From assembly GCA_008632985.1 (NCBI GenBank), contig QPGO01000059.1:310001-374000 (forward strand): a stretch of DNA of 64,000 nt. The letters run 5' to 3'. Below, piece after piece: positions 22,302-56,124 of the stretch. The notes under the pieces were generated by a model. It ran no database searches and was not told the DNA's origin. It saw nothing but the letters and a program-made list of their open reading frames with translations. The position numbers and the translations under genes were made by a program. Each line of letters begins with the position of its first letter. Position 1 is the first letter of the stretch. Source of the DNA: Psammoneis japonica (taxonomy: Eukaryota).

Positions 22302-22406
22302 GTGTGTCAGATGTGTCAATGAGGGGGTGAAGCAATGTGCTGCAGCAATGGCAGAGGTGGCAGTCCTGGAAGGATGTCATGCAAAAATCATGTGCACCAG
22401 TGTTGC
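22302..22406 (+). pseudogene. PHD-finger-like relic
   Basis: VCQMCQ*GGEAMCCSNG...SCKNHVHQCC; the TGA is compatible with CGA>TGA. Confidence 0.4.
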
Positions 22407-28210: not shown

Positions 28211-29432
28211 GTGATGAAGTTGAATCCTTGCCAAGAGACATTTGCAGGCATGTTTGAAAATGCCGCTGAACTTGCCAACTGTTCCTCTACGAGAATGGAA
28301 AGTGACAAGGGCACTGCAGCGAAAACCGCAATCTGGCCCATTGACATTTCCGTCAAAAATCAAATTGGTCAACCACACACAAGGAAAGAACATCAAATGG
28401 CCCATCTGCTCCCTGTGGGTGTGTCAAAGAGCACAAAGAGTGGCTTGGAGTGGTGGCAGCTGTGCTTGGGCTTCCAGAGTGCACCAGCATCAAGAACAAC
28501 TCAAAGCAACTGGGGGACACCTGAAACCACCTCTGGAAGTGAGGCACAAATTGGGAAAGGAAGGGAGGGTGGCAAAAAACCAAAAGCTTGTGCAAAAGGT
28601 TCAAAATCAGGGGAATCAGAAGAAGAAACACCAAGTTGTCAGGACTGCACTGGTGTGGTGCACTTTGTCTCCAATGAGGTGTGACTGAGTGGTGAAGAAA
28701 CACACTGGGATGGGTCAACTGCTTCTGTCATTCTTGTTCCGTGCATGGACTTGGTGGAGGCAAAAGACTGGGAAGGGTCAAGCACACAAAGCTCTTGTTC
28801 TGGCTGGGCTCCCTTGTGGTCAAGCACCACCAGATGCATGCCAAGTGTCTGACCCCAAAGATGTGATTGGACTGGCAAAGGACGCTCACAGGCACACAGG
28901 TTTTGGTGCAGAGGGATTCTGCAAGTGTTGTGTTCAAATGAAAGAACAAGGTCTTTTGCCAGGAGGCCAAGAGCATGCTCACCTTCTGTGAAAAGCACAA
29001 AATCTCCTCAAGACTGCTGTGTTGGCCCTGGCCCAGTGCATTGAGAGCTTCGCGATGGCTGACCTCACAAGCCTGCTGAAGGATGGTCAAGAGCTGCTGC
29101 TGAGGAAACGTGGCTTGGATTTGGCTGAAGAGGTGCTGGCACCCATGGAGTTGTGTTCAAGCAGAGACCATCATCTCAGGTCACTGCTCTTTGTTGACTT
29201 CAGGCCCCAACTTGGTGGGGAAGCCAGCCACCAAGCCCCAAATCCCTTGTTGTTGGCAGCCAAAGCGGGAAATGTCTTTGGAAGGATGACAGACTTTGAG
29301 TTTCTTGCCAGTGCTGCACTGAACCATGCAATGAAGACAAAGAAGACAGTTTGGGCTGCCTGGGTGAAGAACAGTGGTTGGCCACATGCCCATCACAGCC
29401 AGCCCCGCCACTCCCTGGAGTCATTTCTGTGA
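28211..29432 (+). pseudogene. Relic of an HNH-like nuclease-type gene
   Basis: Fragments in shifting frames: IWPIDI..AHLLP, TGVVHFVSN, HWDG..VILVP, HQAPNPLLLAAKA. Family assignment is from recalled motifs only. Confidence 0.3.
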
Positions 29433-31588
29433 CCTGACATGGGGACCGCTTGTCAGCTTGCATTGATGCTGCAGGGCTGACTTCACACTCCCCGCCTGGC
29501 GAACTTGTTTCGTGCTGTGACCTTGTTTGGGAGGACTTGATCACTCCTTTCCCACACCCAACAGTCGCAGCTTGTCATCTGGACATTGTGCAGGGGTTTG
29601 TGGTTGACCTCGTCAATCAAAACTCAGATGAGTCACTTGAGGGGCAATGTCACTTTGAGAGCAGACAACAATGCAGACCACTCAGCTTCAGTGGAGTCAG
29701 CTCAGGAATTGCACTCACCAAATCCTCTGGATCCCCTTGACAAAGTGTCCACAGTGTTCAGCATTGATGTGCTTCCAACCTGATGCACTTGCAATTGGCT
29801 CCATTCAAACCTCCCAAGCTTTTTGTTCAACAAGTGAGTTGGGCAGATGTGACAGTGTCCCTTTTGCAAAAAGACTGTTTTGATTTGCAAATTGCACCAT
29901 GCCTTTGCAGAAGATGGGTGATGGCGTTTCTGCAAAGTGTTTGTCAGGCCGCCTGGTGTGCAAAATGTAAACATCTTTCATTCAAAATGGCAAAAGCACA
30001 TTGGGGTCATCTTTGTGCTGTTTTTTGCCATGATGAAAGCTCTTTTTGCCACACTGCTGAAGAAAACACAGCCTGAGCTCAGGTCATGCACCTGCAGCAG
30101 ATTGACATGTGCGCGCACTTTGTGCTTGCATGCGCAAATTGCTGATGCAGAGAGGGCAAGAAATGGAAACTCCACTGGGGCCATCCTTCTCTTGTTTGAA
30201 ACAAGACCAACAACAGAGGCAAGGCAACCCTGAAAGAGAGGGGCGCTGAGTCTCATTGCCTCCCACTGTGCTGCATCTCTCCCTCGCTGCTGTCAGGGCT
30301 GCTGCAGTGTCAACCAGTGTTTTTCCTGGCACTCCCAACCTGTCCACCATTGCCAATGACAACCCCTCACATTTTGTGACCAGGGGAGGGATTCCCACAG
30401 TGCAGAGGAAGTGCAAAACAAGGCTGCCAAGTGTGCTCAAGCTTTGACCCAGGTGCCCATGATGCACCAACATTGCTCCAATGTCTCACCCAACATCCTT
30501 TGTGGTCAATTGTCTGTTGGCTGTTGAAATTGTTCTTGGGCACAAGACTCCTCATCTCATTCAGAGCAATTGTTGTGGGGGCTGTTGTGTTGATCTTTTT
30601 GTCGAAAACTCGGGCGGGGGTTGGTGTGCGCATGCTGGAGGAGGCTTTTTGGCAACATTGCTGCCCCTTTTGATCTTTTGCAATGTGTTGAGCTGACCAT
30701 TTTTTGTCTCATCTGGTTGTTTGCTGCCTTGCATTGTTGGCAAGGCATCCTCTGCAACACACTGCTGCTCCGCCCCTTCTTTCTTTGTGCCCAGCTGCGT
30801 TGTCTGGCAACGGACATTGCAGATCAGGGGAGGGTGCCAGCAAGCCAACTCTGCAGATGACAGTCAGACTTGGGTTGCTGAGTGGATGCCTCTGAGATCT
30901 TCTTTTTGCTCTCTCTCTCACTGATGCTCATGTTGTCAAAAACGCCCGTTTGCAGGAAACTCTTGACGCCATTGCTGGTGTGGCTCCCTGCTCTGATGCA
31001 TGGTGCAGCGACATCAGGTCAAATTGAGTGTCACATTTCTTTGATCACTTGTCCGGGTGGCAGTGCTTGGATCCTTTGTCCCAAATGGGGGCATGCATGT
31101 GGCATCGGTCAGTGCTGCTTCCTGCGGTGTGTGTGGGGGGGGTGACATCATGCTGGCTGGGGGCGCGAAGTCGAAATCACAACATGCACCCGGTACGTCA
31201 TGGTTCAGTAACAAAAGTCGCATGTAGAAAATGTATGATGTGTTACGTATGGTGTTTGGTTGCCATCCATCATCGCCACAATCGCGCTGTCGCGTTCGTT
31301 CGTTGCAGTGAAGCTCTCAACGACCTGCTGTACTCTCGCCGCAAGAGCTTCATATTCATTGACGTTGCGTAAAGGTCGGTGTTTTATATGTTTTTGTCAT
31401 GGTGTCGATGGTTTGGTGTTTCATCTTTTCGAAAAGCAGTTTTTTTGCGGCGACTCGATGCCATCTTCTGTTCGCTGTGACGCCGTCGTATGACAGACAG
31501 GCCTTGATCGTTTTGTTGTTACAGTTAGTAGTCGGCTCACTTTTTTCTTGCCGTTCCGGTATTGTAGTAGACACGCTCTATTGCAACC

Positions 31589-35483: not shown

Positions 35484-36588
35484 GTTTAAGCTCTAGCGAA
35501 CTAGAAGATGCTGTAAGTCTGGATAAAAGAGACATACACGCACTCTGGCGTATCTTTGAAATAGACGGAGTCTCGGGAAGATATTACATTTGCACTCTAG
35601 TGAATATTTGTCCTATAATTACTGCCTAGCACCCAGTAGATGTGAAATATGTGAATGAATAAACGTTCATCCATGCGGCATTAACTGTTACCGTACCACG
35701 ACGAAATTGGGCCTTCTCAAAGTGAATACAGTATTTACTACTTGCTCGTCATGTGAGACGACTGAATGAAATTTTCTATTTTCCTTTCGTAACATGTCTT
35801 TATCACAACGTGTTTTGCGGTTGGGACTGCCACAGCCGACATCCAAAAGCCTTTTTGTCGTTCTGATTGTTGCTTTTCTCGTTGACACGACAACATTGAT
35901 CTGCTTATTTTGTGTCACAGCTTGGGCATCTAATCCTCATTTCTTGCTGCTGTTCTTTCCTCTGTGAGTTGTGCCATCATTTTGAGAGGTGTGTCCCTCT
36001 CTTGCAACCATTGCCTGGGTTTGCTTGACACCAGTGCAAGCAGCCCAGCTCACTCTCCAAAGCACAGTTCTGCTCCGGCACTTGAATTCAAGTGCAATCA
36101 GGACCAGACCAGGACAGCAAAACCAAACATTTTGACAAAAAAATCAACATCTGGCTACAAGCATGAGCTCTTGCCACAAATTTGCGCAGTGCCGAGAAGG
36201 CAGCTGTTGGAGCCCGCATCAGCTCCAGAAATTCAATGTGTTTGTGTTGGGCCAGTCCAACATCAACTGGAGCAGCAGCATGGGGTCATCCCTTGACAAA
36301 GCTGCCATGCATCAACTCATGTGTGCTCAGCTGCATGGTCGAAAAACATTGTTGCATGCCAAGACAGCTGACGCGGGCATCACCACACCCCCACACAAAA
36401 GCCAAAAGGGCTGTTTTGCCAAGAGCTGCAATGTCAGGTTTTTTGTGCTGGCCATGGTCATCTGCCAAGCAACAGCTGGCATCTCAAATCTCAAAAACCT
36501 GGAAATGAGGGCGGCTGCTGTGGTCCCCTGCATGGAAGTTGTTGGGCACAAAAGAGACCCCCCCAATTTGGCTTTGTGGGGAGTTCCT

Positions 36589-36737
36589 CCCTTGATGATG
36601 TGGTGTGGCCCCATTTGTGGGCCAGCAGTTTGATGACCATCTTGCTGCCTCTCATGCCAGCACCCTTGATGATCTGGTGTGGCCCCATTTGTGGGCTGGC
36701 AGTTTGATGACCATCTTGCTGCCTCTCATGTCAGCAC
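36589..36737. repeat. 74-bp tandem duplication
   Basis: cccttgatgat...ctcatgYcagcac starting at 36589 and 36663. Confidence 0.9.
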
Positions 36738-37760
36738 TGTTGAGCAAGATGAGCCAAAGCAGTTGTTGTGAAATTCATGTGCAGCAAAAGTGAGCAGCAC
36801 AGCTCAGTCATCAAGGGTCATCAGGAAATTTTGGGGTGGGGCAACGCCTTTGATTGACAGCTGAGCACTCAGCAAGAGGAAAGTCAAAACATTTCTTTTT
36901 GCCATGTCCCAAACTTTGGCTCCTAAAAACATGAACAGCAAGAATGGGAAATGAGAGAGGGGACAAAGTGTGCTTTGTTTTGGAAAATCTTTCAACAACT
37001 GCTCAGGCTTTCCTTTGCCTCTGCAGCATGATGATGCTGCAGGAAGAAGAAGACAAGAGACAGTTGTGGTTGTGCACTGAACTCATTCTCAAGTTCCATG
37101 TGGTGTGACACAAAAGGGTGTTGGCAAGTGCAAAAGCCACTGACAGGCAATGCTGAACAATGAAAGAAAAGAAAGATGGCACAACAAGCCAAGCTCCTGG
37201 GGCTTGGTTGCAAGAGTGAATGATTGAACTCAAAATTGTGGTGGGCTCTCCTTTCCACCACTTGTCACCTCTGCCATCATTCTTTGTGCATGACACAGGC
37301 AGCTCATTGTCAGTGTGGAACAACAATCAACTTTCCACATGATTTCACCCATGCTGCATTTGTGACATGTGCCCATTTTCTTGCTCACAGAAAAAGAACA
37401 TCACAGAAGCATGACTCCTGATCATGAAGAGCGTTTCTCTGTTCTTCTTTTGGAGTGGACAAAGGCAAAAGAAGATCATGCGTGATCAATGATGTGCCAT
37501 GAGTTGTGGTGGTCATGATGTTTGGGTTAGGGCCCCAGAGCAATTTTCTGAGAGAGGGGGCTGGAGGCATCGTGGGACCGATCTCCAGCATGTGTTTTAC
37601 GTCGTGGTGTTTGCCGTTGAAGAAAGCTGTGAACTTGTCGCCGACCGCTGGACACTTTCAACTCTTTTGGCAGAGCCAAGAAGAAGACAGACACAAAAGA
37701 GTGGCATGAACAACAATCTGAAAGCCATTTAGCATGGATCCCTCACAGAGCAAAAAATCA

Positions 37761-38558
37761 TTAGCTCTGCTGACCTTCCTTTTCCTGATGGCGTCGACAG
37801 AGGTGTTTGTGTCTCTTCCAATCACCTTTTTGACACTCTCCACCACAACGCATTGCCACATGACATTCACTGCACCGCAGTTTTGCTGCAAGTTTCTTTC
37901 CACAGCAATCACACTCCAGATGCTCCTCCGCACCAGCCTGCAACCTCGAGAACAATTGGATGTCTTCGAGTCCCATGGCCTGATCCAACAGATTGGCATG
38001 GTTGCGGTCACAAAAGAGTTCCCATGCCAGCTTGCAAGCTGCAAAGAAAAACTTCTTCATCTGTGCCGGTCCATGCAGCAAAGCATGTTCCAATTCGGTT
38101 TTGGAAAGACGCTCCGCAAAGCAAAGCACATTCCATGTGCGCAAAACAATTTCACTCTTTGAAAGTTCCCTTTCTGCCCCATCGGACCGTCCGTCAAAGA
38201 CCAGTTCTTGTTTGTCCACTCCAAATGCATTTCCAAATTCTTCAATGACATCCTCTCCACCCATCATTTCGTCACATTCCTCTGGCAGCGGCCCATTGAC
38301 GTCTCCCGAACCATCACACAGGACTCCACAGTTGAGAAGGGAACGAAATTTTTCCACCACACTGGCAATGCCCGCCACACGAGGAGAGTGCCAATCATCT
38401 CCCAGTGGCATGGGCAGCGGAATGGGTTCGTAACCCGCCTCGCGCATCATTTTGTGGGGATTCACATGAAAGCCCACATCCCAATCAATGTTGGCAAAGT
38501 TGCTGTTGCAGAGTCGCGCCGTGTGCCCACTCCGTTGATGCGGTGGAAGACTGCGCAT
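37761..38558 (-). CDS. MYND zinc-finger protein; open frame but TpA-eroded (possibly pseudogenising)
   Basis: CDCC..LRCSECHVAMRCGGECQKGDWKRHKHLC. Only one Tyr in 265 aa, and the canonical YC reads RC (CGT). Confidence 0.6.
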   Translation of the reverse strand: MRSLPPHQRSGHTARLCNSNFANIDWDVGFHVNPHKMMREAGYEPIPLPMPLGDDWHSPRVAGIASVVEKFRSLLNCGVLCDGSGDVNGPLPEECDEMMGGEDVIEEFGNAFGVDKQELVFDGRSDGAERELSKSEIVLRTWNVLCFAERLSKTELEHALLHGPAQMKKFFFAACKLAWELFCDRNHANLLDQAMGLEDIQLFSRLQAGAEEHLECDCCGKKLAAKLRCSECHVAMRCGGECQKGDWKRHKHLCRRHQEKEGQQS

Positions 38559-38910
38559 GACGCGTTCCAGCCCTAGGTGGGACTCCGTGTGACATTGGGC
38601 CCGTAGAATTCTACGTGCGAGCTCCGTAGTACGAGAATTTAATTAATGGATACATTTATCTTCAACATCAAATAAACGGCCAAGTTTGTGGTACAATTAT
38701 GCCTCTTACCACTCGACGTTTTTGCAAATGCACCTGCCCTACGCGATTCTTAAGACATTATAGAATCGCGCTGTAACAATAAATGTCAAAAGTTTTTGGA
38801 CGGATCGCTCAATAAGTGTACCGTAAAATGACACAAAATATCGAAAAAATCACGTAGAAATCTACGTGCGCGACATACGACGTGATTCAAAAAACTGTCG
38901 ATGTCACAGT

Positions 38911-39213
38911 TCAGTAGTGCGAGGTCCCACCTAGACCTGGAACACGTCGCATCCACAACTGAATCGTATTTGCATAGTCGGTGGCGGCCAAGGCTTGTTC
39001 CATCTGTGTCCGACTGAAGCGGCTGTGCAAGTAGAGCGACTTGAAGGCGTTGTAGAGATTCCGGCCCGCGTCGCCAGACGTGCCCAAGACCTTTTCTGCA
39101 TCCGTGTCGGGGAGATAATCTGCATCGCGAGATTCAATATACTTTTGCACAATGAGTGCGTAGACCTTGTAGGCATATGGTACCAACTCAGAGGCGTTGT
39201 TGGTCGACGCCAT
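38911..39213 (-). CDS. Small 100-aa orphan protein
   Basis: ATG at 39213 (MASTNNASELVPYAYKVY...). GC-richer ORF between AT-rich flanks with normal Tyr content. Confidence 0.55.
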   Translation of the reverse strand: MASTNNASELVPYAYKVYALIVQKYIESRDADYLPDTDAEKVLGTSGDAGRNLYNAFKSLYLHSRFSRTQMEQALAATDYANTIQLWMRRVPGLGGTSHY

Positions 39214-41513: not shown

Positions 41514-41783
41514 AGGAGGTACCGAACATTATCTGTGTGAACAAACTTACGCTTAGATTAAATTCGTAGATTTCATTCACTGAGAATGTAAGACTTAGGC
41601 AATCTTCTTCCAACTGGTAAAGCAACGACAGCGGCGAGAATCACTGCCATGCCAATCTAAAAGTGAACACAGGAATCCTTCACACTACGCGCAATGGCAA
41701 GCAATATCATAGTGATAATAATCTAAGTAGGTATGTCTAAGTCTCGTGTGAGAACAATCTAATTCCTAACTGTGTGTCAAATA

Positions 41784-43349
41784 TCAAGCGGACCCATTCT
41801 TGTTGTCACGAAGTTCTCGTTTAAGGATCTTGCCTGTGGCCGATTTGGGTAGAGCGTCAACAATCTCCACAACGCGAGGATATTTGTAGGCAGCAATGTT
41901 GGATTTGCAATACTCGATAATCTCTTGAGGTGCCAATTCTTTGTCTGGCTTGAGGACAATGACAGCCTTGACTTCTTCTCCAAGACGTTCGTCTGGAATA
42001 CCAATCACTGCCGCTTCCGCGATTGCTTCATGACGATAGAGCACTTCTTCCACCTCGCGACTGTACACATTGTATCCGCCGCGAATAATCAAGTCCTTTT
42101 TGCGGTCCACAATGAAATAATATCCATCCTCATCCACTGTGCCAATGTCACCCGTGGCGAACCATCCGTTTCCACGCGAAAAGACTTCTTCGTTGGCTTC
42201 AGGAGCCTCGTAGTAGCCCTTCATCACATTGACTCCGCGGATATGAATTTCACCACGTTCGTGGGGTTTGGTAATGACATTCCCATCATTATCCACAAGA
42301 CAGAATTCCACAAAATCAATCGGAACACCAATCGATCCTACCTTCTTGGGACGATCCAAGACGTTAAAGGACGCCACGGGCGGCGTTTCGGAGAGGCCAT
42401 ATCCCTCCAAGATGTTGACGTTGTACTTGGTATCAAACTCCTCCATGACGCTCTTGGGCATGGCACTTCCACCGCAGACACAATACTTGAGTGAATCAAT
42501 CTTGTATTCTTCCGCCTTGGGGTGATGAAGCAGTGCAAAGTACATGGTTGGGACACCCGCAAAAAAGTTAATCTCGTGCTGCTTTAAAAGTTTCAAGGCA
42601 CCCTCCGCGTCAAATCGTGGCATAAGAACAATGGTAGCACCGACACTCACACCACCATTCTGCACCACGGTTTGACAAAAGGAATGAAACAAGGGCAAGA
42701 CGGCCAAAAACTTGTGTTGCGACTTCAAGGGCAGAAGCGATCGAGTCAGGCATTGGGCGTTTTGAAACAAATTAAAATGGGATAATTCGGCACCCTTGGG
42801 TTTTCCGGTCGTGCCGGACGTGTAGAGAATGACAGCCGTATCGGTGGGCTGCGTGACGGCCATTTCTTGACGTGGCGCTGCCTTGCTTATCAAGGAGTTC
42901 CAATTGTACATACCATCACCCTCGTACTCCTTGACATTGGTGGGATCTTGCGGTACAACAATCAAATGTTGACACTTCTCCGCCCCCTGAAAACCAGCTT
43001 GAGCGTGTTCTAGAAAACCTTCCCATGCAATCAATACCTTGGCGTTGGAATTCTCCAAATGATACTGGACCTCACCCGATTTCAGCAACACATTGAGAGG
43101 CACTACGGAGGAACCACGGTATAGCGCACCAAAGTAGGCAGCTGTGAAATAAGGTACATTAGGCAACATGAGTGCAACATTGGCGGATGCTTCAGAATCA
43201 TCAAGTAGTGTATCCAGCACGGATGCAACCTTTTGCGACAAGCCTAGCAACTGACGGTACGTGACGGATGTTTCACCAATCACGAGTGCAGCCTTATCAG
43301 GGTACTTGGAGGCTGACGTTGTAAGCAGAGTAGAAAGGTTGAGAGACAT
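41784..43349 (-). CDS. Long-chain fatty acid-CoA ligase (FadD/LcfB-like), intronless
   Basis: YTSGTTGKPKG, EGYGLSET, GWFATGDIG, DRKKDLIIRGGYNVY..EVE, LPKSATGKILK. Confidence 0.93.
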   Translation of the reverse strand: MSLNLSTLLTTSASKYPDKAALVIGETSVTYRQLLGLSQKVASVLDTLLDDSEASANVALMLPNVPYFTAAYFGALYRGSSVVPLNVLLKSGEVQYHLENSNAKVLIAWEGFLEHAQAGFQGAEKCQHLIVVPQDPTNVKEYEGDGMYNWNSLISKAAPRQEMAVTQPTDTAVILYTSGTTGKPKGAELSHFNLFQNAQCLTRSLLPLKSQHKFLAVLPLFHSFCQTVVQNGGVSVGATIVLMPRFDAEGALKLLKQHEINFFAGVPTMYFALLHHPKAEEYKIDSLKYCVCGGSAMPKSVMEEFDTKYNVNILEGYGLSETPPVASFNVLDRPKKVGSIGVPIDFVEFCLVDNDGNVITKPHERGEIHIRGVNVMKGYYEAPEANEEVFSRGNGWFATGDIGTVDEDGYYFIVDRKKDLIIRGGYNVYSREVEEVLYRHEAIAEAAVIGIPDERLGEEVKAVIVLKPDKELAPQEIIEYCKSNIAAYKYPRVVEIVDALPKSATGKILKRELRDNKNGSA

Positions 43350-43649
43350 GGCGTTTTGGCGTTCTTGTAGCTTTATGGGTAACAATCATTCGCTAGAGTA
43401 GAGAGAAGGATATCGCAGCAACAGGAACAGCAACGAGAACAGCAGAAGTGAACCCGGTAACTGTAAGGCGAACTAGTAGACCCTATTGTGCGTGATTGAA
43501 GTTTGTGTTGAAGGAAGGTGTCACCTCAAAGATCGCGCCACATCGCGCCAAAAAGTCTCAACGTCAATGACCCAAATCTTGGTTTTTATGACATACAACG
43601 CTACTGTACGTAGGGCCCTACCTAGAGAGCAGGGCCCTGTTTATTTTAG

Positions 43650-46600
43650 AACGACCATGCCATGGATGAACACAACCCCAGTGGCATTTCTTGCCGACCG
43701 TCAACACAAATTGGAGCCAAGACGGCAGGCCAAGCACAATGAGAGGACATCTCTTGGGTGGCCGTGCTCTTGGAGTGTCGCCGCGCGACAGACAGCAGCC
43801 TGCGCAGGTGCAATGGATGGACAGATGACGGACGATGACGAGATGCCGCCCAGTCCCCCTCATTGTTCTTGGCAGACGATCAGTGACAATGGGATCAGAT
43901 GCGTTGACCCACTTGGGTCAACAATGCTGAAAATTCCCACCCAACCCATCCCTCTGTTCACACATCAGCGCAGGGGAACAAATGGACGGAATTAGATCTA
44001 CGGATTTGTCCCCTGTTTTCCCAGCCACTGTCACAGCAGCAACACATGAATGCACATGTTTGTGTGTGTGTCACACATTGGGTGCATTTGTCCATGGTTG
44101 TTGCTCCCATTTGGTGGTGTCACTGTGTTGTCATGTCATCGAAGTGCAGTCCAGCTGAGGCTGCAGTGGCAGGGAATCTCCGATTCATGACGACATCAGC
44201 CGCTGCGATCATCAAGATTCTGGAGAAGAGTCTCAACAATCTTGGAATTGCAGAGACCTCCAAGAAGATTTGGTGCCCCAAGCTCCCATTGGCACACATC
44301 AAACCTGTCATTTGTTGCAAGGTGTTCAATGGCATGGAGCTCATTTTTGCTGAACATGGCAAGTCATTGCACAAAATGACACTTCCCCTTCCCACCCATG
44401 ATGATGTTGTCACGTGGGCCCCATCAAAACGTCAAAATGAATTCAACAAAAACATCAAGTGGGCAGCATGCCCTGAGTTGGAATGACCCAATGTTGCACC
44501 TGTCATGCATGAATTTTGTGGCTGTTTCTGTGTGGTGTGGGATTGAGGAAAAGTGTCCGAGGGTTTTTGTGCCACATTGACACAGGTTCCATCCAGCCAG
44601 TGTGCTGCAAACCTCCCAATGCGGTCCGCATGTGAGTGGGCCATGATGAACCAACTGACAAGTCACCCAGACAACAACAGACTGACCAAGCCCAACTTGG
44701 ACAGCCCACGGGGTGCGCTTGTTGTGCTGGTGGCCAAACCCAATCAAGAGGACAACCCATGGTTCCAGCACATCTGGCACTCATGCATCTCATGTCAGAA
44801 ACTGAGCCAGGCAATGCATCCTTTTGCACGCATGCCCCCCTTGGTGCAACGATGCAGCACAAGACATTCCCCCACATGCCAAGTCTTTGTCAGCTTTGAT
44901 TTGGAGATTGTGGGTGCTGGCAAATTCATCATGACAAGGAAACCTGCTGCCACAAGACTGACTGTGGATTGCAACATGCTGGCACACTGCAACACATCTG
45001 CCAAAGCATGCATGAGGGGAGCAACTGAACACTGGAAGCTCCCCCACAACTGTGTTGATGGCCATCCCACAGCACCATGGCCCCCTCAATGAACAAACCT
45101 CCCCACTTTGGCACAACCCACACCACCCCTCACCTTCAGTGGTGCACTCACTTTAAACCATGCATCCAACCTTGCCCAAGAAGCCAATTGAGCCCAAAGA
45201 ATCATCGCACGGGGCCCCATCACACAGCCCTCATCCTCAAGCCTCTTGACAACATCAAAATCATTGCAAACAACCCTGTCTTTCTGGATGATCATGTGCA
45301 GAAAAATCAGCAGGACCATGCATTGGTGACCAATGCCAAGTTGTTCTTTGAAGATGGGTCACATCATTCACCCCAAGACAACCATGTTGATTGGCACATC
45401 ATGGTGTGCACACCAGAAAACCCAAAACCACCACTGTCTGACAAACAAGAAGAAGAGTTCCAGACATGGTGTTCGACAGCCCTGCTGGAACACACCAATC
45501 TTCTCATTGGGTGCGGTCATGCAAGAGCAGCCTTGTTGTTGTTTCCTCATTTTCATGGCAACCCAACCAAGTTCATCAAGCACAATGCCAAGCTGCGTGT
45601 CGATTGGTCAGCTGCAGCTGCCATGGTGAGCAACACCACTCATGGTGGTTCCATCAAGAGAGACCACATCCTGGTGCTTGTAGCCCCTGCAAGCATGGCC
45701 AAACAGCTCTGCTTTCCCCCCTCCTCAAAAACCCCAGATCCCATGCACAAGCATCTGGGCACACACTTGTCATCAAGCATCTTCCTTGATCTTGATGATG
45801 CAACCAAAACTGACCTGATGCCAGTTGCCAAAGCCATGGCAGAGAACATGACACATCAGCAACTGTCACCTGGTTTGCCAAGCCAAGTGCAATGAGCTCC
45901 CTCTGTGAGGGCTTTTCCAGCATTCTCTGACACCAACCCAGCTCCGTCGATTGCCGCACCCTGAGTCAAAGGAGATTTCTTCAATGGCCCATTTGCCACA
46001 TGGGGATGTCTTGCAACAACTGCCAGCATCACCACCCAGCCCATCTGTGTGAGATCATGAACCCGCTCGGTGTTGACCAGAGTCATGCCAAATGCTTGGT
46101 TCACCATGATGAGAGCACCCCACTCAAGTCATTGCACAAGCAGCACCAGGCAAAGCTGGATTGTGCATGATGCTCCATGCTTTGCACATGGCCGAATCCT
46201 TGTGCAAACCAGACAGTCAAAACATGAGGAGTTGGCCAACAAAGCCAACATCCAGCCAACTGCAGCACACATGTCTTTGGCCCCGGCAATCAACAGAGCA
46301 ACTGTGGTGCCATTTCCTGATGATGGCAAGTGGTGACAAGCAACGACACAAGATCATGACCACAAAGCAGTCCTGTCACACCTCCAACATGGCACAGCTC
46401 CCACTGGAGCCAACTTCAGCAACAAAGGTTGTGCTCGGGCATTCAAAGCTGACCAGTTAGAAGCAGATCAGGGCATCACATGCTTCTGTGAATGAATCAA
46501 GTTGAACAATCACTGCCAACTCTGAGCCAAAGTGGTGCCTGTCACATTGCGCTGAACGGTGATTGTGGCATGCCATGTGCCCCCATTTGCAGGACAAAGT

Positions 46601-48340
46601 GGCATCATCTGCATTTTGTTCCAGGTGCAAACAAGGTTCTGGTGGCTGGGCATGCTGCAAGACATCACAGAAGGCATCCATGGATGTGGACATTGCACTC
46701 TGGCCAACTGCACCTTGCATGAGGCTCAAATGCAGTTGACTGCATTGAGTGGTGATGTCCCATTTGATGTCATTTATCTTGATGTCTAGATGCCTGGTGA
46801 CATCCAAGATGTCCAAGGTCCAAAGAAAGTCCTCACATTTGTTGACTGCATGACTGGATTTGTCATGGCATCTTTCTTGGGAATTGCTTTTGACTCTTTG
46901 GTTGTTGCTGATGTCACAGTCTCACAGTTCTTTGTCTTTTGTGGACTGCCTGGACAGATTGCAGCAGGTGCTGGTTCAGTTTTCTGTGCTGTGTTTTTGT
47001 GGCTTTTTGATCTCCAAGTCCCCATCACAGCCATGTCCAGAACAAACCACAGAGCAGTGCACAATGAGAACTTCCACCATTGTCTGAATGAGGTTGAGAG
47101 CAGATTGATGCCGCAGACACCGGATCAATGATGCAATGGAAACTCAGCATCATCTTTGCTGCACATCCCTGGAGTGCTTCTCCCATTGATGCCACTGTCA
47201 TCCCATGAGCTGTTGCAGTGACAGGCAGAGAGTTCCCCTTCCCAATCAACCTGGTGCTGAACATGCCACATGACAGCAGCTCTGATGCCAAGAACAAATT
47301 GGCAGATCATTGCAAGGCTGCAACCCCACTGCCACTCAACAACATGAAATGCTCAACACACTGAACAATGAGAGGTGACAATGACACATGGAGCTGTGCA
47401 ACCACTCTGCTGCACAGTGCCAATTCTGCCCAGGGGATCTGGTCATCACAAGAAAAATGGTGCAATCTGATGCTTCATGTGGAATTGCAACCAAAGTGCT
47501 CTTCAAGGCCAAAGGTCCACATTGTGTGCTCAAGCAAATCTCTCCGGTGTCCTGTCGAGTGAAATGCATGCCGTTTCTCTGTGGACAAGGCCAGCCTGGC
47601 AAACCCTGGAAAGAGAATGCTGGGTGCATGACCCTGTCACCATCTCTGCTGATTTTTCACAAGCACGCAGACAGAGTGGACACACAGCTCCTTTGGCTGT
47701 TGAGTGACATCAAGCAATCACCACCACCGCACAAGTGGCTGGGAGTTTTGCAATGTGGTGGCTTCACCCAAGCTGCACCAGATGCCACTGGGGCATTTGA
47801 GCTGCTCCAAAGCATGTGGAGTGAAGACATGCCAGACCCTGACTCTGATTCCAACTCCAATTCAGACCCCAAAGATGACCCTCAATTGGCAGACAATCCC
47901 AGAGATGATGATGAAATCCAAGAAATCCCTGAGACTCCCCATGCTGAAACACCTTCCACCATGATCCTTCCAGGTGTTGATCTGTCTGCTGACCAACTCC
48001 TCAACAAACTCTGCTGGTCCATTGAGGATTCCACTGACAAGCCATTCTTCACAGCATGTCAACAATCAGAGGAGGACGAAAGTCCTGTGACAAAAATCAC
48101 TCAAGCGGACCTCCTGGAGACTGTCCCACATCAGGCAAAATGGCGTGGGATGCACCACATCAGATGGTGGTCTCAACACTTTCAAGACCAGGATGACAGA
48201 TCTGCAGTTGACAATTGACTCTGGCCAGATGCACACAGGAAATGAGCAGACAGCCATCAGCCACTCCAACTTGTTCCAGTGTGCCCGCAAAAGATTCAAG
48301 ATGTGCTGGCAACTGACTCCACTTTGGAGTGGAAGCACGA
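43650..48340. other. Block C: CpG/TpA-depleted DNA
   Basis: Visible dinucleotide bias; left edge 43651-43990 has 18 CG and 0 TA by hand count. Confidence 0.88.
44480..47900 (+). mobile_element. Degenerate Ty3/Gypsy LTR-retrotransposon pol (reverse transcriptase then integrase)
   Basis: RT remnants SPRGALVVLVAKP..WHSCISCQKL, SFDL..GCWQI. Integrase remnants PFDVIYLDV, VDCMTGF, GLPGQI, NENFHHCLN, GREFPFPI. Order RT>INT. Confidence 0.8.
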
Positions 48341-48478
48341 TTGTATTTACAAGATGATGTCCTTTTGGGAAGTGAAATCCAGTGTGGTCATTATCATGAT
48401 GATTGTCATTGTTGTCACCGTCAGCATCACTCATTCTGCAATCTATAATCTATAATGTTAACCTACACCACTGCGTCA

Positions 48479-49585
48479 CTAACATGACTCATCAATAGTG
48501 AGATGCAAGTCGCCAGGTTTTGCTTTCTTTGCAGACTCAGCTGCTCCGGTAGCCTTATCTAGAAGTAGCAAGCTTTTCTGAGACTGTAGAAGTCCCGCAA
48601 CTCGAGAAGCAATCCTCTGTACTCCCCCCTTCAAGTCATTTTCGTCGTCAATAATGAACGTGCGTAGTCGAATGGCACCAGCATCTTTCTTGCGCGTTGC
48701 TGATGGCTCCAATCGTAGAAGAATCCATTCCCTGTATGTTGTCGCTATTCCGTAGAATGGCAAGTCAACGCAAAATGAGCGTTTCTGACCACGCCCCTCA
48801 CCTGCCGCTGTTAGTTGCGCAAGATTCTGATATAAGCCTTGGGCGACGTTGTCCTTTTTGCCTTCCGTGATGCAGATTCTGTGGTTCCCGTAATGTGCCA
48901 TCCAGTCAACAGGTCCTTTCCCAAGACTGCCGTCGACTTGTTCTTCACATGCCAGTTTGACTTCTGCAATTGAAGCAGCAAGGACTAGGACTGAAGAAAT
49001 GAATTCTCGTCGCGTGTATTCACAGCCTTGTTCCAATGGATCATATAGTTTGTGCTTCAGGTTTAGATCTTTGACAGCATGGAGCAACAGATCATGGGTA
49101 TCTGGAATGCTAGCAGGTTGTGGGAATCGAGGATCGTCATTACGGACTATCTGGATCTCAGAAATACCGGCATAATCGAGCGCATCTTCTTCAGTGAATT
49201 CCGAGAACCCAATGTGTTTGGTTTTTATATAGAGCGTTCGTGGGTATTTCGCGTTCCGCAAGTAGTCGTCAGACACAACGTGGCGGCACTTGTCGTCCGA
49301 ATAGATGAAAAAATCAGCTTCTTTGAGATGCCCCTGCCACTTGGAAACAGCATGCTCGCTCAGGCAGGTGACGGTCACTGCGTTCCTGGCAATGTCGGGG
49401 ATCGTCACAGAACCATACTTGCTGTACTTGAGTGTTATCGTTACGAAATCGAAAGGGATTGTATTTCTAATAGCTGCATTCAACGTCTCGCATTCTTGGG
49501 CGCTCAAACTCACCAGTGAAGCCGCCGACGCCGAATTCTCCAGTTTGTTCTTCAAAGCCGAAAGGGGTGATAAGCCGCCGTTCAT
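48479..49585 (-). CDS. PD-(D/E)XK restriction-endonuclease-fold protein (Crinkler-type nuclease domain), intact
   Basis: EEQVDG..GKGPVDW..ICITEGKK..QGLYQNLAQL..YGIATT..W; normal CG and TA content. Confidence 0.75.
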   Translation of the reverse strand: MNGGLSPLSALKNKLENSASAASLVSLSAQECETLNAAIRNTIPFDFVTITLKYSKYGSVTIPDIARNAVTVTCLSEHAVSKWQGHLKEADFFIYSDDKCRHVVSDDYLRNAKYPRTLYIKTKHIGFSEFTEEDALDYAGISEIQIVRNDDPRFPQPASIPDTHDLLLHAVKDLNLKHKLYDPLEQGCEYTRREFISSVLVLAASIAEVKLACEEQVDGSLGKGPVDWMAHYGNHRICITEGKKDNVAQGLYQNLAQLTAAGEGRGQKRSFCVDLPFYGIATTYREWILLRLEPSATRKKDAGAIRLRTFIIDDENDLKGGVQRIASRVAGLLQSQKSLLLLDKATGAAESAKKAKPGDLHLTIDESC

Positions 49586-50099
49586 GGTGCTGCGTCTGCG
49601 ACGCTTGTGTCGGTGTCTTCGACGAGATGCGGTGTGCAAGCGCCTCCTACGCCGATAACGGACAGACGGACAGACGGACAGACGGATGACGAACCGTCAA
49701 AAATTGGACGCTTCGCTGAACGGCTGTATCTCATTGTCTTCATTTACAAACATTTTAAGATGAAACATCAGATGCTTCAAACAACACAATGACGTTGCAA
49801 TTGTTAAAATGTCAAAGAGAAGGATGTCCGTGGTGCTCTTTTGCTTCTTCATTTTGACACTCATCAGCCGCCAGCAGCAAATCATGACTTCACGACATCT
49901 GTGCAAGTTTCATGAAATGTTTCCTCAGTGTCATCTTCATCACACGCCTCTTCAATCAACTTGACAGTGGCCCACAAATGGTTGGGTGCAACAGGTGGAG
50001 AGTGCACAATGTTGCACAATGCATCATCATCAGCAGCATGTTCTGTCTTGCACTTTTTTGTCTCTTTTTGTGCTTTGTCGCCCAACTCTTGATGAGCTG

Positions 50100-51150
50100 A
50101 CGAAGCTGAAGACATCATTTGGCGGTGTTTTCATTGTTCATTGTGATCAGATTGGTCCTGACAGGCCATCCACTCTCCTCTGGATTTTCGTCATTTTTGC
50201 AACTGACTCTCATGGAAACATGTCTGAAAGTTAAAAACCTTGATCTGCCAGCGATCTTTTCCTCATGGAAAGTGACATCCCAAGCAATGCAACCTGTGCT
50301 GTTGCCACCAATCTTGACAGGAATGTGGTCAACAACGGCATTTTCAAGAAGGTGCCAGAGGGAGCACACTCAAAATCTCTTGCACAGCCACTTCCAACCC
50401 ACACCATTGTTGTCCTCTGAGCAAGCAAGAGCCTCAAGTGGAAAAATCGAACACACCAGGTGCGAGCATGTGGATTTTCAAGATGAGCTGTCCAAGGACA
50501 TTTTGCTTGCAGTTTGTCCAGATGCTCATGTCAAACAAGCTGGGAATGAATCAAGGCATGTGGACCCACTTCTCCAAAGCTTTGCATGGCCACCCTGTGA
50601 TGACGAGCCTCAATGAGAACGTGGAGAAAAAGGAGGCCAACGGCACTGTTGGCTTTTTTGAGGGAGTTGAGCTGAAGGAATGTGTTTCTTTGGATGATTC
50701 AATGATTGATGAGAATTGATGGTCATTGGGTGAGGTCAGCCTGTGTTTCACAAGTTGAGTCAATTGTCTTGAGGCATGAAGAAAAGGCAGGAGGAGGGCT
50801 GTTTTGTGTGGCTCCAAGGAGAGAGACATGCTGTGTTGTCAACTTTCCTGTCCCTGTGATGGGCTTCATTGACAAGAGAACCCCAAGAATCAGTCAGAGG
50901 AAGCAATTGACCCAGTTCCCAGTTTTGTGCAACAACGCAGCAACTGCACACAAGCTCCAGGCAGGGGACAAAATTGAGAGCCTGGTTGTTGTCCAACAAA
51001 ACAACTTTGACCGCAGAGACAGCTGGGTTCATGTGGTTCTGTCTGGAGTGACAACAAGAAAGGGACTTTGTCTCAGGAAGAAGTTTGACAGCAGGAAAAC
51101 AAAGGGCATGCCATTTGCATCAAGTGAATTCCCTGGTCACTTCAGGAGCA
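50100..51150 (+). mobile_element. Degenerate PIF1-family helicase (Helitron-like) remnant
   Basis: FGG..IV, VDPLL..PVM..NENV...ANGT.G, QFPVL.N.AATAHKLQ, WVHVVLSGVTTRKGLCL (motif VI, YVxLSRV). Confidence 0.7.
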
Positions 51151-53089
51151 CAAGAGAGGGTTCTAAGAAGGCTGTCAGGCTCCTCTGGTGTGCTGCAAAT
51201 GACTGTGCAAGGCATTCACAACAAAAGATTGCAGTCATCAGACAATGACTTTTAATTGACAATTTGTCAACAATCTGGGCTTGCATCATGTGATTGTCCT
51301 TGTCAGGTGCAGAGACAATTGAGGGTGTTGAGTGAGTCACAATCTCCGGTTTGAAAGCGAGCGAGCGCGCAAAAAGCACAAAATCACCACATCCATCATC
51401 TCAACGGAAAAAAGGGCCATGTCACATCCACAGATTGAGGGTTTAAAAAAGACAAAAGCAACTGGCATTCAAATGTTCAACATGAATGACCTCAAAATGG
51501 AAAAATGGCTGGTTGATTGGCCAGGAGTCGACAGCATCCCAACCCAAAAATGACTGAGGCAACATAAAATTCGGAGTGTTTTGTGTGTCAGCAAACAAAT
51601 TGATTTTTGTGAAACCTCGAACCATGCAAAAGTCATTGCACCCCATTTCGTCTACAAAGACTGCTTGCAAATTTGGTCATTTTGAAAGTGGTCAGCTCCA
51701 AACCTGCCCCAACTTTGTCTCACCCGTCTGTCGCCGGTCCGTTTGGGGTCAGGGCAGGGGGGAGACACAGACGGGTGAGACGCGGAAAGAAATGAACCAA
51801 ATGAGCGTGCCACCGAAGCTGTTGGTGTCATGGTCAAGAAAGCCAAATGAGAGTGCCCCATGCTGAGATGACTGATGCAACAATGAGCACAGGCATTGAC
51901 AGTGCATGCCATCTCAGGATGAGTGTCATTGGCAACACACTGGAGCATTCCAGGGGCAGATCGACAACTGAAGCTGCAGTCAAAAGCAAGAGAACTTTCA
52001 TTCTTGAAGAGTGGAGAAGCAACAGGAGTGATGCTGTGCATCAAGTGACTTTGGATTTGGATGCAATGGAGCAACCAAGACATGGAAGTCATGATCAAGA
52101 CACCCGCAAGAAAAGAGGTGCAGAAAGTCATCACAGTCCAGCCACAGCTCGAATTGCAAGCTGTGAATGAGTCCATGCGGGAACACTCTGGGACCAGTGA
52201 GAACCAGAAAGGAAGCACAAATGAGCTGGTGGACAAACCAATCCACAGGAAAAATGCAACAATGAGCAAAGAGCAAAGCTCTCCACACAAAACACAGCCA
52301 GCAAAGGATCCCATGAACGTTGTTGGGCACATGACCTGTCACAAGAAAATGGAGCCATGCAAAGACAGGGTGCAGAGGTTTTGGAAGAAACTGTGTGACA
52401 TGTCACATCACCTCAAGAAGATCTTCTGCTTTTTCAGAAAACAAAAGTGTCAGAATGTCAATGACCGAAATCTTGATGATTTGTCTTCAATGCTTGACAA
52501 CTGCAGCCAAGAGGGGTCATCCCCACATTCATCCAAGAATTGCCATTGGCAGTTGAATCAGAACATTTGTGGTGCTCATTTTTGAACACTGAGTTGCCCA
52601 TGTTCACACCCCATTGTGCACAAAAATGAGAACATCAGGCACCGTGATCGAAGCACGATGATGATGGCAATCTCACAACAACTCTCCAAAATGCAGTGGT
52701 CCGTCCACAAACATTTGATGCACAGCAACCTTTGACACACTGCAAACACAAAATGAATGAGAGTTGGCAGATGGACCACCTCTGTCACAGACTTGTGGCT
52801 TGATGTTTTCACCACGGTGAAGCACGGTGAAATTCAGGAAAAATCATTCGAGTCGAGAGCCATTTGGCCAAAATCAAGATAAAAAAGCAGCAAATGATCC
52901 CCCTTGTGGAGCGGCGTGCTTTCAAAACAGCGGCACACCACACTGGTCTACATGTGCAATTGGGTGTGTGGGGACATGCCAGATTTGCTTCTTTGAATTT
53001 TCTTTCTGACTGTGGTTGCTGCTGTTTCTGCCATTTCATCAAACATGCTGATGCACCACAGCCTTTTGCATCAGACAATGGGGATCGAC

Positions 53090-55620
53090 AATGGGTCAAA
53101 GGCCCTTGGTTGTGTTGACCACCTTTCATTTTCTGAGTTTCGTGCAGTTCTGTCAGACAAGGCTGAAAAATCAGGTCAAAAAGGGCAGCCAACAGTTGCT
53201 GTTGACATTTCATGGTTGGCATTCAATCTCAGAGGCAACTGAGGTGTGGTCGACACCAAGGACCTTGTTGTTGCATGTTTGGAGAAGTTTTTGTTTGAGG
53301 GCGTCCATGTTAAAGCCAGATTTGATCCATCAGAGCACCACAACTCAAAAAAAGGCTGCCATGGATTGACGAGCAAAGTGCAACCACAGTGTTGTTCAGG
53401 CCATCAAATTCAAGACAGAGATTTCAAGATGTCTTGCAATTAGAAACATGCAACACCATTGATGAGAAAAATGAGCTTGTAAAAAAGAGAGATGCTCTGG
53501 ATGTCAAAATGAAGGCCTGTGAGCAAAATTGCAGAAATGCAACATCCTCAGAGTTCAAAGCTGTCATCAAGATGGGCGTTTGTGACTTGCAAGCTGTGCA
53601 CCTGAGTCTTTCCATTGTGGTCGGCCAGCACCAAGTTGATGGCAAAATTCAGCAGCTGTTGGTTGATGGATTTGCTGATGCTGCCATGGGAAATGATGCT
53701 GATTTCTCCTTTGTCGCAGGCAAAGCATGCATCCAAGTGTCAAAGTTCAAATTTGAAATGAAGAAGAAGAAGAAGAAGAATGAGAAGAAGGGGAATGCCA
53801 GTGACCCAGAGCAGACATCAGAGACATTGCCATCATGAGTGGATGTGTGTCCACTGTTCAATCTTGTTGCTCAGTTTTGGGAGTTGATGTTTCAGCTTCA
53901 AAAGAAAGTGGCCGTTCAACATGCAAGCCGGCTGCACATCCTTTGTTGGACAGGATTTCAGACACACGGTCACAGTGTTTGCTTGGCGTCACTCTTGGCA
54001 GTGATGCATTTCCTCAAAGTTTGAAGAAGACTGCTGCTCTTGAAGGCATGTCACATGCCACCAAAGGAAATCACCCGCGGCCAACAGCAACATTGACTTT
54101 GATGACCTTTTGTTGATGGTTTCTGAAATGACACCTGCAAAGAACAAGAACCCAAATGCAAAGAAGCAGCTTCTGAGTGCTGAAACTGTCATGGCTTTTG
54201 TGGAAGCTGTGGCACATGAGCCGGCGGAAGTTCTTGCCGACGGCAGCATTGTTCACATTGGCGGAGCTCCCGACTCTCCAGCTTTGGTGCACATCAAAGA
54301 TTTCTTTGCTCTTCAGACAACTTGAAGAAATTGGATTGTGCCATGATGGAATGCAGCGGCTCATGTGCAGATGGCAAGCATTGTTTTTTTTGGGGGGGGG
54401 GGGGTGGAGGAAGAAGGATTTTCCAACTGTCAGTCTTGTTGCAACTTGACGTGCTGCCGAATCTGCGTGCCAGAAGGTGACACGCCATGTGCTCAATGTT
54501 CGGTTGATGGAACTGCTTGTCATCCTGACAGCAATGAATTTGCAAAGCTGTTGCAAGTGGAGCTAAGAAGTGCACTGGCAGAGAAGATTGAGATGCCAGC
54601 CGGTGCATTGATTCCAGAATTGCTGGAGCTTTGTGAGATGTGTCACTTGCATGACACAGCTGAAGGCCCAGAAGACCTTCTGGGAGAAGCAATGTTTCCC
54701 ACTCACCATCTAGAAGCAATGGAGACTTTGCCAGCAACAGCCAACACACAGACTTCCAAGATGGGGGGCACTTCATTGGAAATGAAAGGCTCACAAACGG
54801 TGTTTCACCAATGCAAGCTCACTTCATTGTTTGCATCTCTTGTGACTTTTGGAGAAAAAGATTTCAACTTTCCAAAGGTGGCAGAGGTTTTGCCGAATGC
54901 AATCATCGCTTTTGCACGGGGCTCATGCATCAACAGTGGGGAAAGGCTTGTGAAGCAGTGTGCGAGACACGCTTTGGATTCCAAGTGCCCGCCCTTGACT
55001 CATGCTGTTGGAGCTGTGTTTGAATTGGGTGATGAGGTGGGTGCTCGGATTGATGCCAAAGTGCCCCCGTCTTTCAAAGACGGGGTGCATGACATGCGTT
55101 TGGCATTTGCAGCAACGAATCTTGTGGCAACAAAATGTGGTTGCAAGGCAGGTCACAACAACAGCTCCAATGCGAGTGAATCGACAAACGCCCATGCTTG
55201 CTCGTTGTGCCATGATGGAGGGAATGTTGCAAAAGGTTCGCGAGGTCCCACCCAGAGCTGGAGCGCATCAGGCGGCACACTCTTCTTGCAGCTCAGCAGT
55301 TGACTTGGAGGTTGGGATGTTTGGCTGGGAGGTGCATCCAACACAGATTACTTTGAATGCAGCCAACTGCTGCAAACACAAGAGGAGTTTCAAAAGAAGG
55401 ACAGCTCGTCGACGCTGAAGTTTGCAAATGTGCTCGACAAAGGCTTTCGGAGCGTTCTTGCAGCAGCATGGCAATTTGGAGGACAGCTGTTGTTGCAACC
55501 TTTCTTTGCCAGGAGTGACCGCAAGTTCACAAGCAAAGAGGTGCTTTTGTCTGCAGCCATTGCTGCTGATCGCTCGGGGAATGAGCGCTCAGCAAATCTG
55601 CTCAAGAAAGTGGCATGATT
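53090..55620 (+). pseudogene. Degenerate XPG/FEN1-like nuclease followed by Cys-rich and SWIM-like zinc fingers
   Basis: VAVDISWL, ARFDP..HHNSK (XPG-N); VGQHQVDG..GFADAAMGNDADF (XPG-I); LGVTLGSD (H3TH-like); KVPPSFK..H.M..ATKCGCKAG (SWIM-like). Confidence 0.6.
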
Positions 55621-56124
55621 GCTCAGGGCGCACATTCACTCCACACAAGACCTTGCCGTTTTCTCAGACGTGTGGATTGCTTGGGGATTTCAGTGTAATT
55701 TCATGTTTATGCCTGTAGTTTAGAATGTAGTTTCAGATGATGCCGGAAATGGATTATGGGTGTTGCCATTCGATCAATGAGATGCATGACATGCGATGCT
55801 GTACATGCATGCCATGTCTGTCGTTGCGAATCGTCTGTCCTTTGACCGATGTGCGCACCGCACTTTTGGAAACAACTTACAACAATGACCGTTTTCCGAT
55901 TGGAGACATCGCAAGACACTTCCAAGAAAATCGAAGGCAGTTCCAGAACACAAAATCCATCACAAACTCAACAAACCGCAGTTTTTGTTCGATGATTCGT
56001 GCCCATCACCCGTCACATTGTTTGTGCATCTTCTTTGTTCGTAGTTGGACGACTGCATTTTTTGTCACCTCCCTCTTGTTTAACCATAGGTCCAGATTGT
56101 ATCTTTCATTAAGTCTCACAAAAG

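Follow-up and report, generated by a model that had tools for sequence, protein, structure and literature searches.

To our knowledge, cytosine is the only base at which silenced DNA is known to undergo directed hypermutation, by repeat-induced point mutation (RIP), by methyl-CpG decay and by APOBEC enzymes. RIP, found in ascomycete fungi, acts on repeats before meiosis, depends on a DNMT-like protein and turns CpA into TpA by C>T changes, thereby making TA dinucleotides and many stop codons. The footprints that ADAR and APOBEC enzymes leave on retroelements lie on one strand and within the element. Among diatoms, Ty3/Gypsy elements (GyDi) have been reported in Thalassiosira and Pseudo-nitzschia (Maumus et al. 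2009, PMC2806351), and the portions of that paper available to us make no mention of hypermutation of the kind described below. We analysed a 64,000-nucleotide stretch of contig QPGO01000059.1 from the Psammoneis japonica assembly GCA_008632985.1, positions 310,001 to 374,000 of the forward strand. This full 64-kb stretch is called the window here, and all coordinates are positions in it. The window contains a dead Ty3/Gypsy-type pol at 44244-48365. In this relic, TG or CA now stands in place of nearly all ancestral TA dinucleotides and of most CG dinucleotides, the result of transitions on either strand. TA loss extends beyond CG loss and can be complete even where CG has been kept.

Four sharply bounded blocks, making up 24 of the 64 kb, carry this signature. 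Their observed-to-expected ratio (o/e) is 0.02-0.04 for TA, 0.17-0.35 for CG and 1.7-2.1 for CA/TG. In the 39.9 kb outside the blocks the same ratio is 0.58 for TA, 1.02 for CG, 1.18 for CA and 1.20 for TG. The blocks, none of which has a strand, are as follows.

20149-31193 (no strand): block B1, 11 kb, with 23 TA (o/e 0.03) and 109 CG (o/e 0.17).
35932-38558 (no strand): block B2, with a core at 35932-37500 that lacks TA and CG and a part at 37600-38558 that lacks TA and keeps CG.
43648-48343 (no strand): block B3, which contains the relic, with 7 TA (o/e 0.02) and 62 CG (o/e 0.21).
49806-55695 (no strand): block B4, of a composition like that of the other blocks, with a right end at 54900-55700 that lacks TA and keeps CG.

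In B3, CA reaches an o/e of 1.76 (607 occurrences) and TG one of 2.09 (513), and TA-free runs extend to 1557 nt. CA and TG counts are near equal in each block, so both strands have been hit. The balance sheet would also close if the ancestors were like the background: block cores hold an excess of 82 CA+TG per kb, against ~84 TA+CG per kb that would then be missing. The edges are sharp to ~100 nt. Between B3 and B4, for example, lies a 1.4-kb gene of normal composition with an open reading frame (ORF) of 405 aa (48479-49696, minus strand), and the block edges stand ~100 nt from this ORF on each side; no Pfam domain was found in it. Recognisable transposon homology is confined to B3 among the four blocks, and a single Pfam domain lies above its cut-off across their 24 kb. 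Pfam scans found nothing in the 81 ORFs of at least 90 aa in B1 and B4 or in six read-through frames of B4. In B1, Gypsy relatives gave no tblastn match and Pfam scans of the ORFs found no recognisable coding homology. A protein Atlas search gave no usable match for the ORFs at 54347-55300 and 27512-28423. The blocks also appear unrelated to each other, as neither blastn nor a transition-blind comparison in purine/pyrimidine code gave anything above the shuffled score of 38.

These blocks can be set beside each of the known systems. As in fungal RIP, transitions in a single dinucleotide context have accumulated at the DNA level in great number on both strands, filling bounded stretches, killing silenced mobile DNA and skewing dinucleotide frequencies. 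However, the direction is the opposite and the base another, since the blocks lose TA by A:T>G:C changes. The hallmark of RIP, a TpA excess with a CpA/TpG deficit, is not found here (TA o/e 0.02-0.04, CA/TG o/e 1.7-2.1). RIP makes many stop codons, whereas TA loss makes none. As to repeats, B3 and B2 look unique, a very abundant miniature inverted-repeat transposable element (MITE) is untouched, and the left part of B4 draws many variant contigs. Methyl-CpG decay likewise converts CG to TG or CA on both strands, and CG o/e falls from 1.02 outside the blocks to 0.17-0.35 within them; one of the two components is accounted for in this way. However, such decay cannot remove TA, and TA loss is the more complete of the two and occurs where CG is kept. 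ADAR and APOBEC footprints in animal retroelement copies resemble the blocks in being clustered directional transitions in dead copies, but here both strands are affected to saturation, and the affected DNA extends to a host gene and to 11 kb that could not be identified. Finally, GyDi shares with the relic a Ty3/Gypsy-type pol and a diatom-like host.

The relic was delimited by tblastn with 150 relatives, which matched no other site in the window. It is colinear with residues 4-1771 of P0001, an intact relative of 1862 aa. A phmmer (HMMER) search with the read-through frame 44912-47128, in which stops were written as X, returned 1074 proteins at E <=1e-3; 29 of these reached E <=1e-30, and P0001 was the top match (E 5.5e-69). 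By tblastn, the relic is 29-48% identical to its nearest relatives. An earlier reading of the DNA, made from its letters without database searches and called here the sequence-only reading, had placed a Gypsy pol relic at 44590-47250. The location was right and the extent too small. The parts of the relic are as follows.

44244-48365 (plus strand): Ty3/Gypsy pol relic, from tblastn and phmmer.
44763-44825 (plus strand): N-terminal reverse transcriptase (RT) motif FQHIWHSCISCQKLSQAMHPF, which reads (S)QYVWRLCVSYRKLNAVVRPF in relatives; BLASTP to P0009, E 1e-12.
44912-44926 (plus strand): GCWQI (GYWQV in relatives), in a frame that differs from that of FQHIWHSCISCQKLSQAMHPF.
44927-45275 (plus strand): remnant of a large internal deletion, ~350 nt, from tblastn high-scoring segment pairs (HSPs).
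46535-46708 (plus strand): Integrase_H2C2, the integrase zinc-binding domain; Pfam 34-36 bits against a cut-off of 25.5.
46787-46789 (plus strand): the sole TAG stop, a TGG>TAG change at a Trp column that is consensus in 96% of 24 relatives.
46790-47128 (plus strand): integrase core relic with FHHCLN at 47072-47089; rve 13.8 bits, and BLASTP.
47098-47331 (plus strand): short third-frame stretch, with frameshifts near 47098 and near 47310-47331, from tblastn HSP frames.

In the relatives, the domain order is RVT_1, RT_RNaseH, Integrase_H2C2 and rve, which is the Ty3/Gypsy order. The relic keeps it, with RT motifs at 44763-44926 upstream of an integrase at 46535-47128. This order, together with an Integrase_H2C2 domain above its cut-off (36.1 bits as residues 979-1036 of the frame starting at 43601, 34.4 bits in a second scan), bears out the proposed Gypsy pol identity. 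The rve core scores under its Pfam cut-off of 32.6, and BLASTP aligns it to the integrase of P0003 with 47% identity (E 9e-24). RVT_1 was absent from the relic in Pfam scans; the N-terminal RT motifs align to RVT_1-bearing relatives, and the rest is deleted. The deletion is evident from the tblastn HSPs, which place P0001 residues 4-205 at 44295-44906 and residues 706-1329 at 45275-47101. Since ~350 nt stand in place of residues ~205-706, the rest of the RT and the RNase H have been lost. FQHIWHSCISCQKLSQAMHPF sits within the stop-to-stop ORF 44547-45092 and GCWQI in a shifted frame, so that a frameshift must lie near 44906-44912. This is one of three frame changes; a second is seen near 47098 and a third near 47320. 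Over 1371 codons, the resulting four frame segments contain 17 in-frame stops, namely 16 TGA and one TAG. Long terminal repeats (LTRs) were looked for around the relic by blastn and by a self-comparison in purine/pyrimidine code; neither gave a direct repeat pair, as expected for a truncated relic, and the 3′ end of the relic breaks off near 48365.

The three motifs on which the sequence-only reading relied were all at the positions it gave (FQHIWHSCISCQKLSQAMHPF at 44763-44825, GCWQI from 44912, FHHCLN at 47072-47089), and their proposed ancestral forms have now been aligned. BLASTP sets WFQHIWHSCISCQKLSQAMHPF over WSQYVWRLCVSYRKLNAVVRPF of intact P0009. P0001 and P0009 have AGYWQV and SGYWQV opposite GCWQI, which supports the suggested match to GYWQI of RT. 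FHHCLN, carried by the ORF 46790-47131, corresponds to FHRYLN of relatives, with ENFHHCLNEVE aligned to ERFHRYLNKVQ of P0003.

That reading had further held that the direction of mutation can be followed codon by codon, and this proved to be so. A hidden Markov model (HMM) alignment set the relic against 24 intact relatives out of the 150 listed of the 1074 matches, and columns with a consensus of at least 60% were scored. The codon tabulation rests on the HMM alignment and BLASTP; a MAFFT version shifts the SYR motif by two residues. The relic agrees with the consensus in 172 of 276 columns. At the eight consensus-Tyr columns no Tyr survives, and the relic has TGY (Cys) four times, CAY (His) three times and TTC (Phe) once. 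The possibility that intact relatives carry Cys or His at these positions can be set aside: their 162 residues there comprise 135 Tyr (83%), 16 Phe, two Cys and no His. Arg is affected as well. Relatives retain 87% of Arg at the 19 consensus-Arg columns, and the relic retains six, the others being TGA (four), Gln (three), Cys (three), His, Asn and Met (one each). Residue classes other than Tyr and Arg are 40-100% kept. In the MAFFT alignment, seven of eight retained Arg are AGR codons, which are free of CG. Eight of 12 alignable TGA stops fall at columns where Arg is the relatives' commonest residue.

The frame as a whole contains 0.1% Tyr and 18.7% Cys+His+Trp+Gln. All 57 matches of at least 450 aa, among the 150 listed, contain 1.1-5.3% Tyr. 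As a control, 30 more distant matches with at least four Tyr columns retain a median of 61% of their Tyr, which is replaced mainly by Phe, Ile, Leu and Val and not by Cys or His. The reversion proposed for FQHIWHSCISCQKLSQAMHPF, by CA/TG>TA or CA/TG>CG changes, also stands: cac, cac, tca, tgt, cag, atg and cat are one step from Y, R, L, Y, R, T and R. TG outcomes are found as well as CA outcomes, in agreement with the claim that both strands were hit. Among single-step codon changes, the four focal kinds account for 19 of 36 at columns of at least 80% consensus and 33 of 75 at columns of at least 60%, with ambiguous cases scored in their favour. By a rough estimate, the focal kinds are several-fold over-represented.

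The same direction emerges at the DNA level. For this comparison we used 24 metagenome loci encoding relatives, found with search patterns biased towards intact copies; many hold intact ORFs of 1770-1950 aa. All 24 have a TA o/e of 0.48-0.74 and a CG o/e of 0.73-1.36, and their longest TA-free run is at most 233 nt. TA and CG are thus normal in relatives, and the composition of the relic is derived and not a family trait. In a codon alignment of the relic with seven intact relatives' loci from three clades, the sites unanimous in the seven (786 nt) include six TA, of which three became TG, three became CA and none was kept. Of six CG at such sites, three became CA, two became TG and one was kept. 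Other dinucleotides were kept at 41-90%, except AG (0 of 2). When the ancestor was instead defined by two of the three clades, TA was kept at none of 35 sites (14 TG, six CA, 15 other) and CG at three of 83 (27 TG, 22 CA, 31 other), as against 592 of 1555 for the remaining dinucleotides (Fisher p 1e-7 for TA and 7e-13 for CG). An absence of dinucleotide bias had been named beforehand as the contrary outcome; the bias found is strong.

TA loss can be separated from CG loss in three zones that lack TA but keep CG, at 37600-38558, 43700-43990 and 54900-55700. The first of these involves a host gene and a MITE.

37764-38570 (minus strand): C-terminal part of a MYND-finger gene, with 1 TA and 36 CG in 807 nt.
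38559-38948 (no strand): MITE of 390 nt with 25-nt terminal inverted repeats (88% complementary), from an inverted-repeat search.
38938-39213 (minus strand): N-terminal part of the MYND gene, beyond the MITE, with 11 TA in 276 nt.

The MYND gene has homologues elsewhere (five matches, E 1e-33 to 2.5e-55), and the MITE that interrupts it lies right on the border of the TA-free domain. In the C-terminal part, the eight Tyr-consensus columns outside the MITE hold TGY (four), CAY (three) and CGT (one), with no Tyr kept. Nonetheless, eight of 12 Arg columns are kept, seven of them as CGN, and identity persists at 95 of 132 conserved columns. The N-terminal part, with 59.5% identity to residues 6-89 of P0298, keeps six of eight aligned Tyr. 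A signature on one side of a boundary within a single gene rules out an RNA-level origin and selection, and binds the process to a domain of DNA. The conserved Tyr at 37850 (minus strand) is now Arg, encoded by CGT, which takes two transitions (TAT to CAT or TGT, then to CGT); this codon suggests that A>G or T>C changes may also have occurred away from TpA. Another MYND gene lies at 10183-11622, and a comparison of the two showed that the MYND ORF is not its recent paralogue.

The few survivors carry information on context. Among 43 TA that survive in block cores, none is in RTAY, compared with 477 of 1508 outside, and three are in ATA/TAT, compared with 721 of 1508 (p 2e-8). Survival is best in TTAA and in CTAA/TTAG, and CG survives best between G/C flanks. 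As an indirect fit, the TA pattern would be consistent with a half-site 5′-TAY on either strand. If the blocks are at equilibrium, which is our own inference, 2 TA per kb against ~230 CA+TG per kb would put TA removal at ~100 times the rate of a generic transition, and 10.7 CG per kb would put CG removal at ~20 times that rate.

On balance, we consider it probable that methyl-CpG decay and a faster, strand-symmetric, domain-confined TpA>TpG/CpA process have together acted on the DNA of a silenced chromatin domain. The first process, CG>TG/CA, would be ordinary deamination of 5-methylcytosine in methylated repeats. The second, TA>TG/CA, would be a faster process of its own, in which an enzyme converts A:T to G:C specifically at TpA and is directed to the domain in the way that fungal RIP is directed to repeats. 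In the chemistry we favour, adenine on either strand would be deaminated at the half-site 5′-TAY to hypoxanthine, which is read as G. The same footprint could arise if thymine at TpA were oxidised and then mispaired with G; both options rest on general chemistry. Conversion of TA to TG or CA makes no stop codons and only CGA>TGA does, so that the relic keeps long open frames. This limit is set by the genetic code, and the finding that 16 of 17 stops are TGA is in line with it. The TGG>TAG change at a conserved Trp indicates that ordinary G>A transitions still create TA, and the surviving TA may therefore be young.

Several observations weigh against this account. The codon changes outside the focal kinds comprise other transitions (8 and 15 at the two consensus levels) and transversions (9 and 27), a sign that ordinary decay has also been at work. 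With the ancestor called by two of three clades, neither TG nor CA was the outcome at 15 of the 35 TA sites and at 31 of the 80 CG sites that had changed. None of the 24 relatives' loci, given the bias of the search patterns towards intact copies, contains a TA-free block, and neither blastn nor the purine/pyrimidine-coded self-comparison revealed an LTR pair or paralogue from which independent mutation of copies could be read. TA is not depleted in the MITE despite its very high abundance (28 TA in 365 nt). By word depth B3 and B2 seem unique, which lends no support to a RIP-like targeting of repeats. Moreover, the mechanism itself is inferred from its footprint.

Copy number bears on the comparison with RIP. 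Word depth in B2 and B3 equals that of single genes, depth not being a copy number, and the summed contig word depth of the MITE is 142,285 against ~60 in its flanks. Two parts of B4, at 49707-53041 and 55043-55699, attract many variant contigs with a summed depth of 135-3493. The differences among these contigs are 126 transitions and 26 transversions, and among them are TG/CA doublets at 55326-55327 and 55364-55365, a pattern that independent mutation of the copies would produce.

A more specific proposal, which we put forward tentatively as a possibility, is a RIP-like defence of new chemistry in diatoms or in this lineage, in which an enzyme targeted to silent chromatin erases TpA independently of cytosine methylation. 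Such an enzyme would convert the adenine, or the paired thymine, at TpA in the half-site 5′-TAY on either strand. Every TA in the domain would be erased in an evolutionarily short time, and mobile DNA would be inactivated without stop codons. The domain would end at boundaries, for instance at an expressed gene or a MITE. The natural substrate of tRNA adenosine deaminase is UAC, and a TAY half-site would fit a DNA-acting descendant of that fold.

No machinery would be needed if the blocks had simply stayed for a long time in late-replicating methylated heterochromatin, where a context-dependent spectrum of spontaneous or repair errors could carry TA and CG to an equilibrium of CA and TG. The relic is indeed old, as its deletion, its frameshifts and its 29-48% identity to the nearest relatives attest; other transitions and transversions are found in it too, the surviving CG lie preferentially in GC-rich flanks, as spontaneous 5-methylcytosine deamination would predict, and no enzyme is known. 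Nonetheless, we regard passive decay as an unlikely, if serious, contender. TA loss exceeds methyl-CpG loss (o/e 0.02-0.04 against 0.17-0.35) and is complete in a MYND fragment that keeps seven CGN codons and is unchanged at 95 of 132 conserved columns. Block edges are sharp to ~100 nt. Under the equilibrium assumption, TA removal would run at ~100 times the generic transition rate, and we know of no spontaneous TpA-specific A:T>G:C lesion of such strength.

Hyperediting of a retroelement transcript by an ADAR-like enzyme before reverse transcription and integration, followed by CpG decay, appears very improbable. The 5′ U preference of A-to-I editing would yield UA>UG, and edited retroelement copies occur in animals. 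However, editing of a sense RNA would give TA>TG only, and here TG and CA outcomes are about equal (Tyr to TGY four times and CAY three times, unanimous TA three and three, 607 CA and 513 TG in B3). Half of the host MYND gene and 11 kb without retroelement homology are affected too, and changes on one strand that end at the element's transcript ends were looked for and not found.

We also give little credence to an artefact by which modified bases were misread in sequencing or polishing and the true DNA still has its TA and CG. Heavily modified DNA can give systematic miscalls on some platforms, and the one public run that contains the stretch, with 99% of its sampled words, may be the source of the assembly. 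From that run, a read-derived contig of 5846 nt spans 43746-49591 with four differing letters and a word depth of 61, equal to that of flanking genes. A polishing artefact is thereby excluded, but the confirmation is not independent. Deletion, frameshifts and non-focal substitutions in the relic also speak against miscalling, as do P0050, with four cluster members, and P0042, which appear by eye to show Tyr>Cys/His elsewhere. Contigs of run X2 cover 41730-43376 and 48435-49516 and none of B3, a missing cover that is no sign of silence.

The records just named are predicted integrase relics in other public records, those of P0050 and its four cluster members coming from metagenomes. They contain 0-0.6% Tyr, and in pairwise alignments judged by eye they have Cys, His or Gln opposite the relatives' Tyr and Arg. 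The signature may thus be present elsewhere, although these records are a lead only. P0042 retains 5.6% Arg and may be a case of TA loss alone.

Selection of element or host against TA and CG, for instance to escape a nuclease or an RNA sensor, would recall the suppression of CpG and UpA in many RNA viruses and would fit the joint depletion, but is the least credible explanation of all, given that conserved Tyr and Arg were destroyed, 16 TGA stops were created, intact relatives have normal TA and CG, and non-coding and host-gene DNA are affected as well.

The combination of methyl-CpG decay with a faster TpA process thus remains our preferred reading, and the mutation process on silenced DNA that it implies is apparently undescribed. 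The full-text literature, with subscription journals and supplements outside its scope, yielded no description of a joint conversion of TA and CG to CA/TG in transposons of diatoms or other organisms. There is a real chance that a categorically new enzyme system lies behind the footprint. A saturating, strand-symmetric and domain-restricted A:T>G:C process at TpA would, if true, be a new mutational genome defence or a new mutation signature of heterochromatin. An enzyme, if responsible, would be a natural adenine or thymine editor of double-stranded DNA, of interest to genome biology and to base editing alike. In practical terms, such blocks conceal transposons and pseudogenes from domain searches, and the long spurious ORFs they yield, with many Cys, His, Trp and Gln residues, are reported by gene callers as 'hypothetical proteins'. 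The relic and the MITE-split MYND gene offer an internal calibration of the process.

Other features of the window bear on its host and neighbourhood. The host is probably a diatom, as judged from one gene near the relic, GINS Psf2, whose best named matches (47-58% identity) are diatom records (Synedr..., Attheya, Thalassiosira). An AMP-binding acyl-CoA synthetase gene at 41784-43385 (minus strand) is 57-65% identical to its best matches. The named ones are bacterial, many of them labelled Myxococcota or Deltaproteobacteria, and a bacterial ancestry of this eukaryotic gene is possible. A U4 spliceosomal RNA gene lies at 7911-8041 (plus strand), with 53.5 bits against a gathering score of 46. 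Finally, long tandem repeats at 15543-17159 and 18341-18832 lie inside ORFs of normal composition and show 89-94% identity in purine/pyrimidine code.

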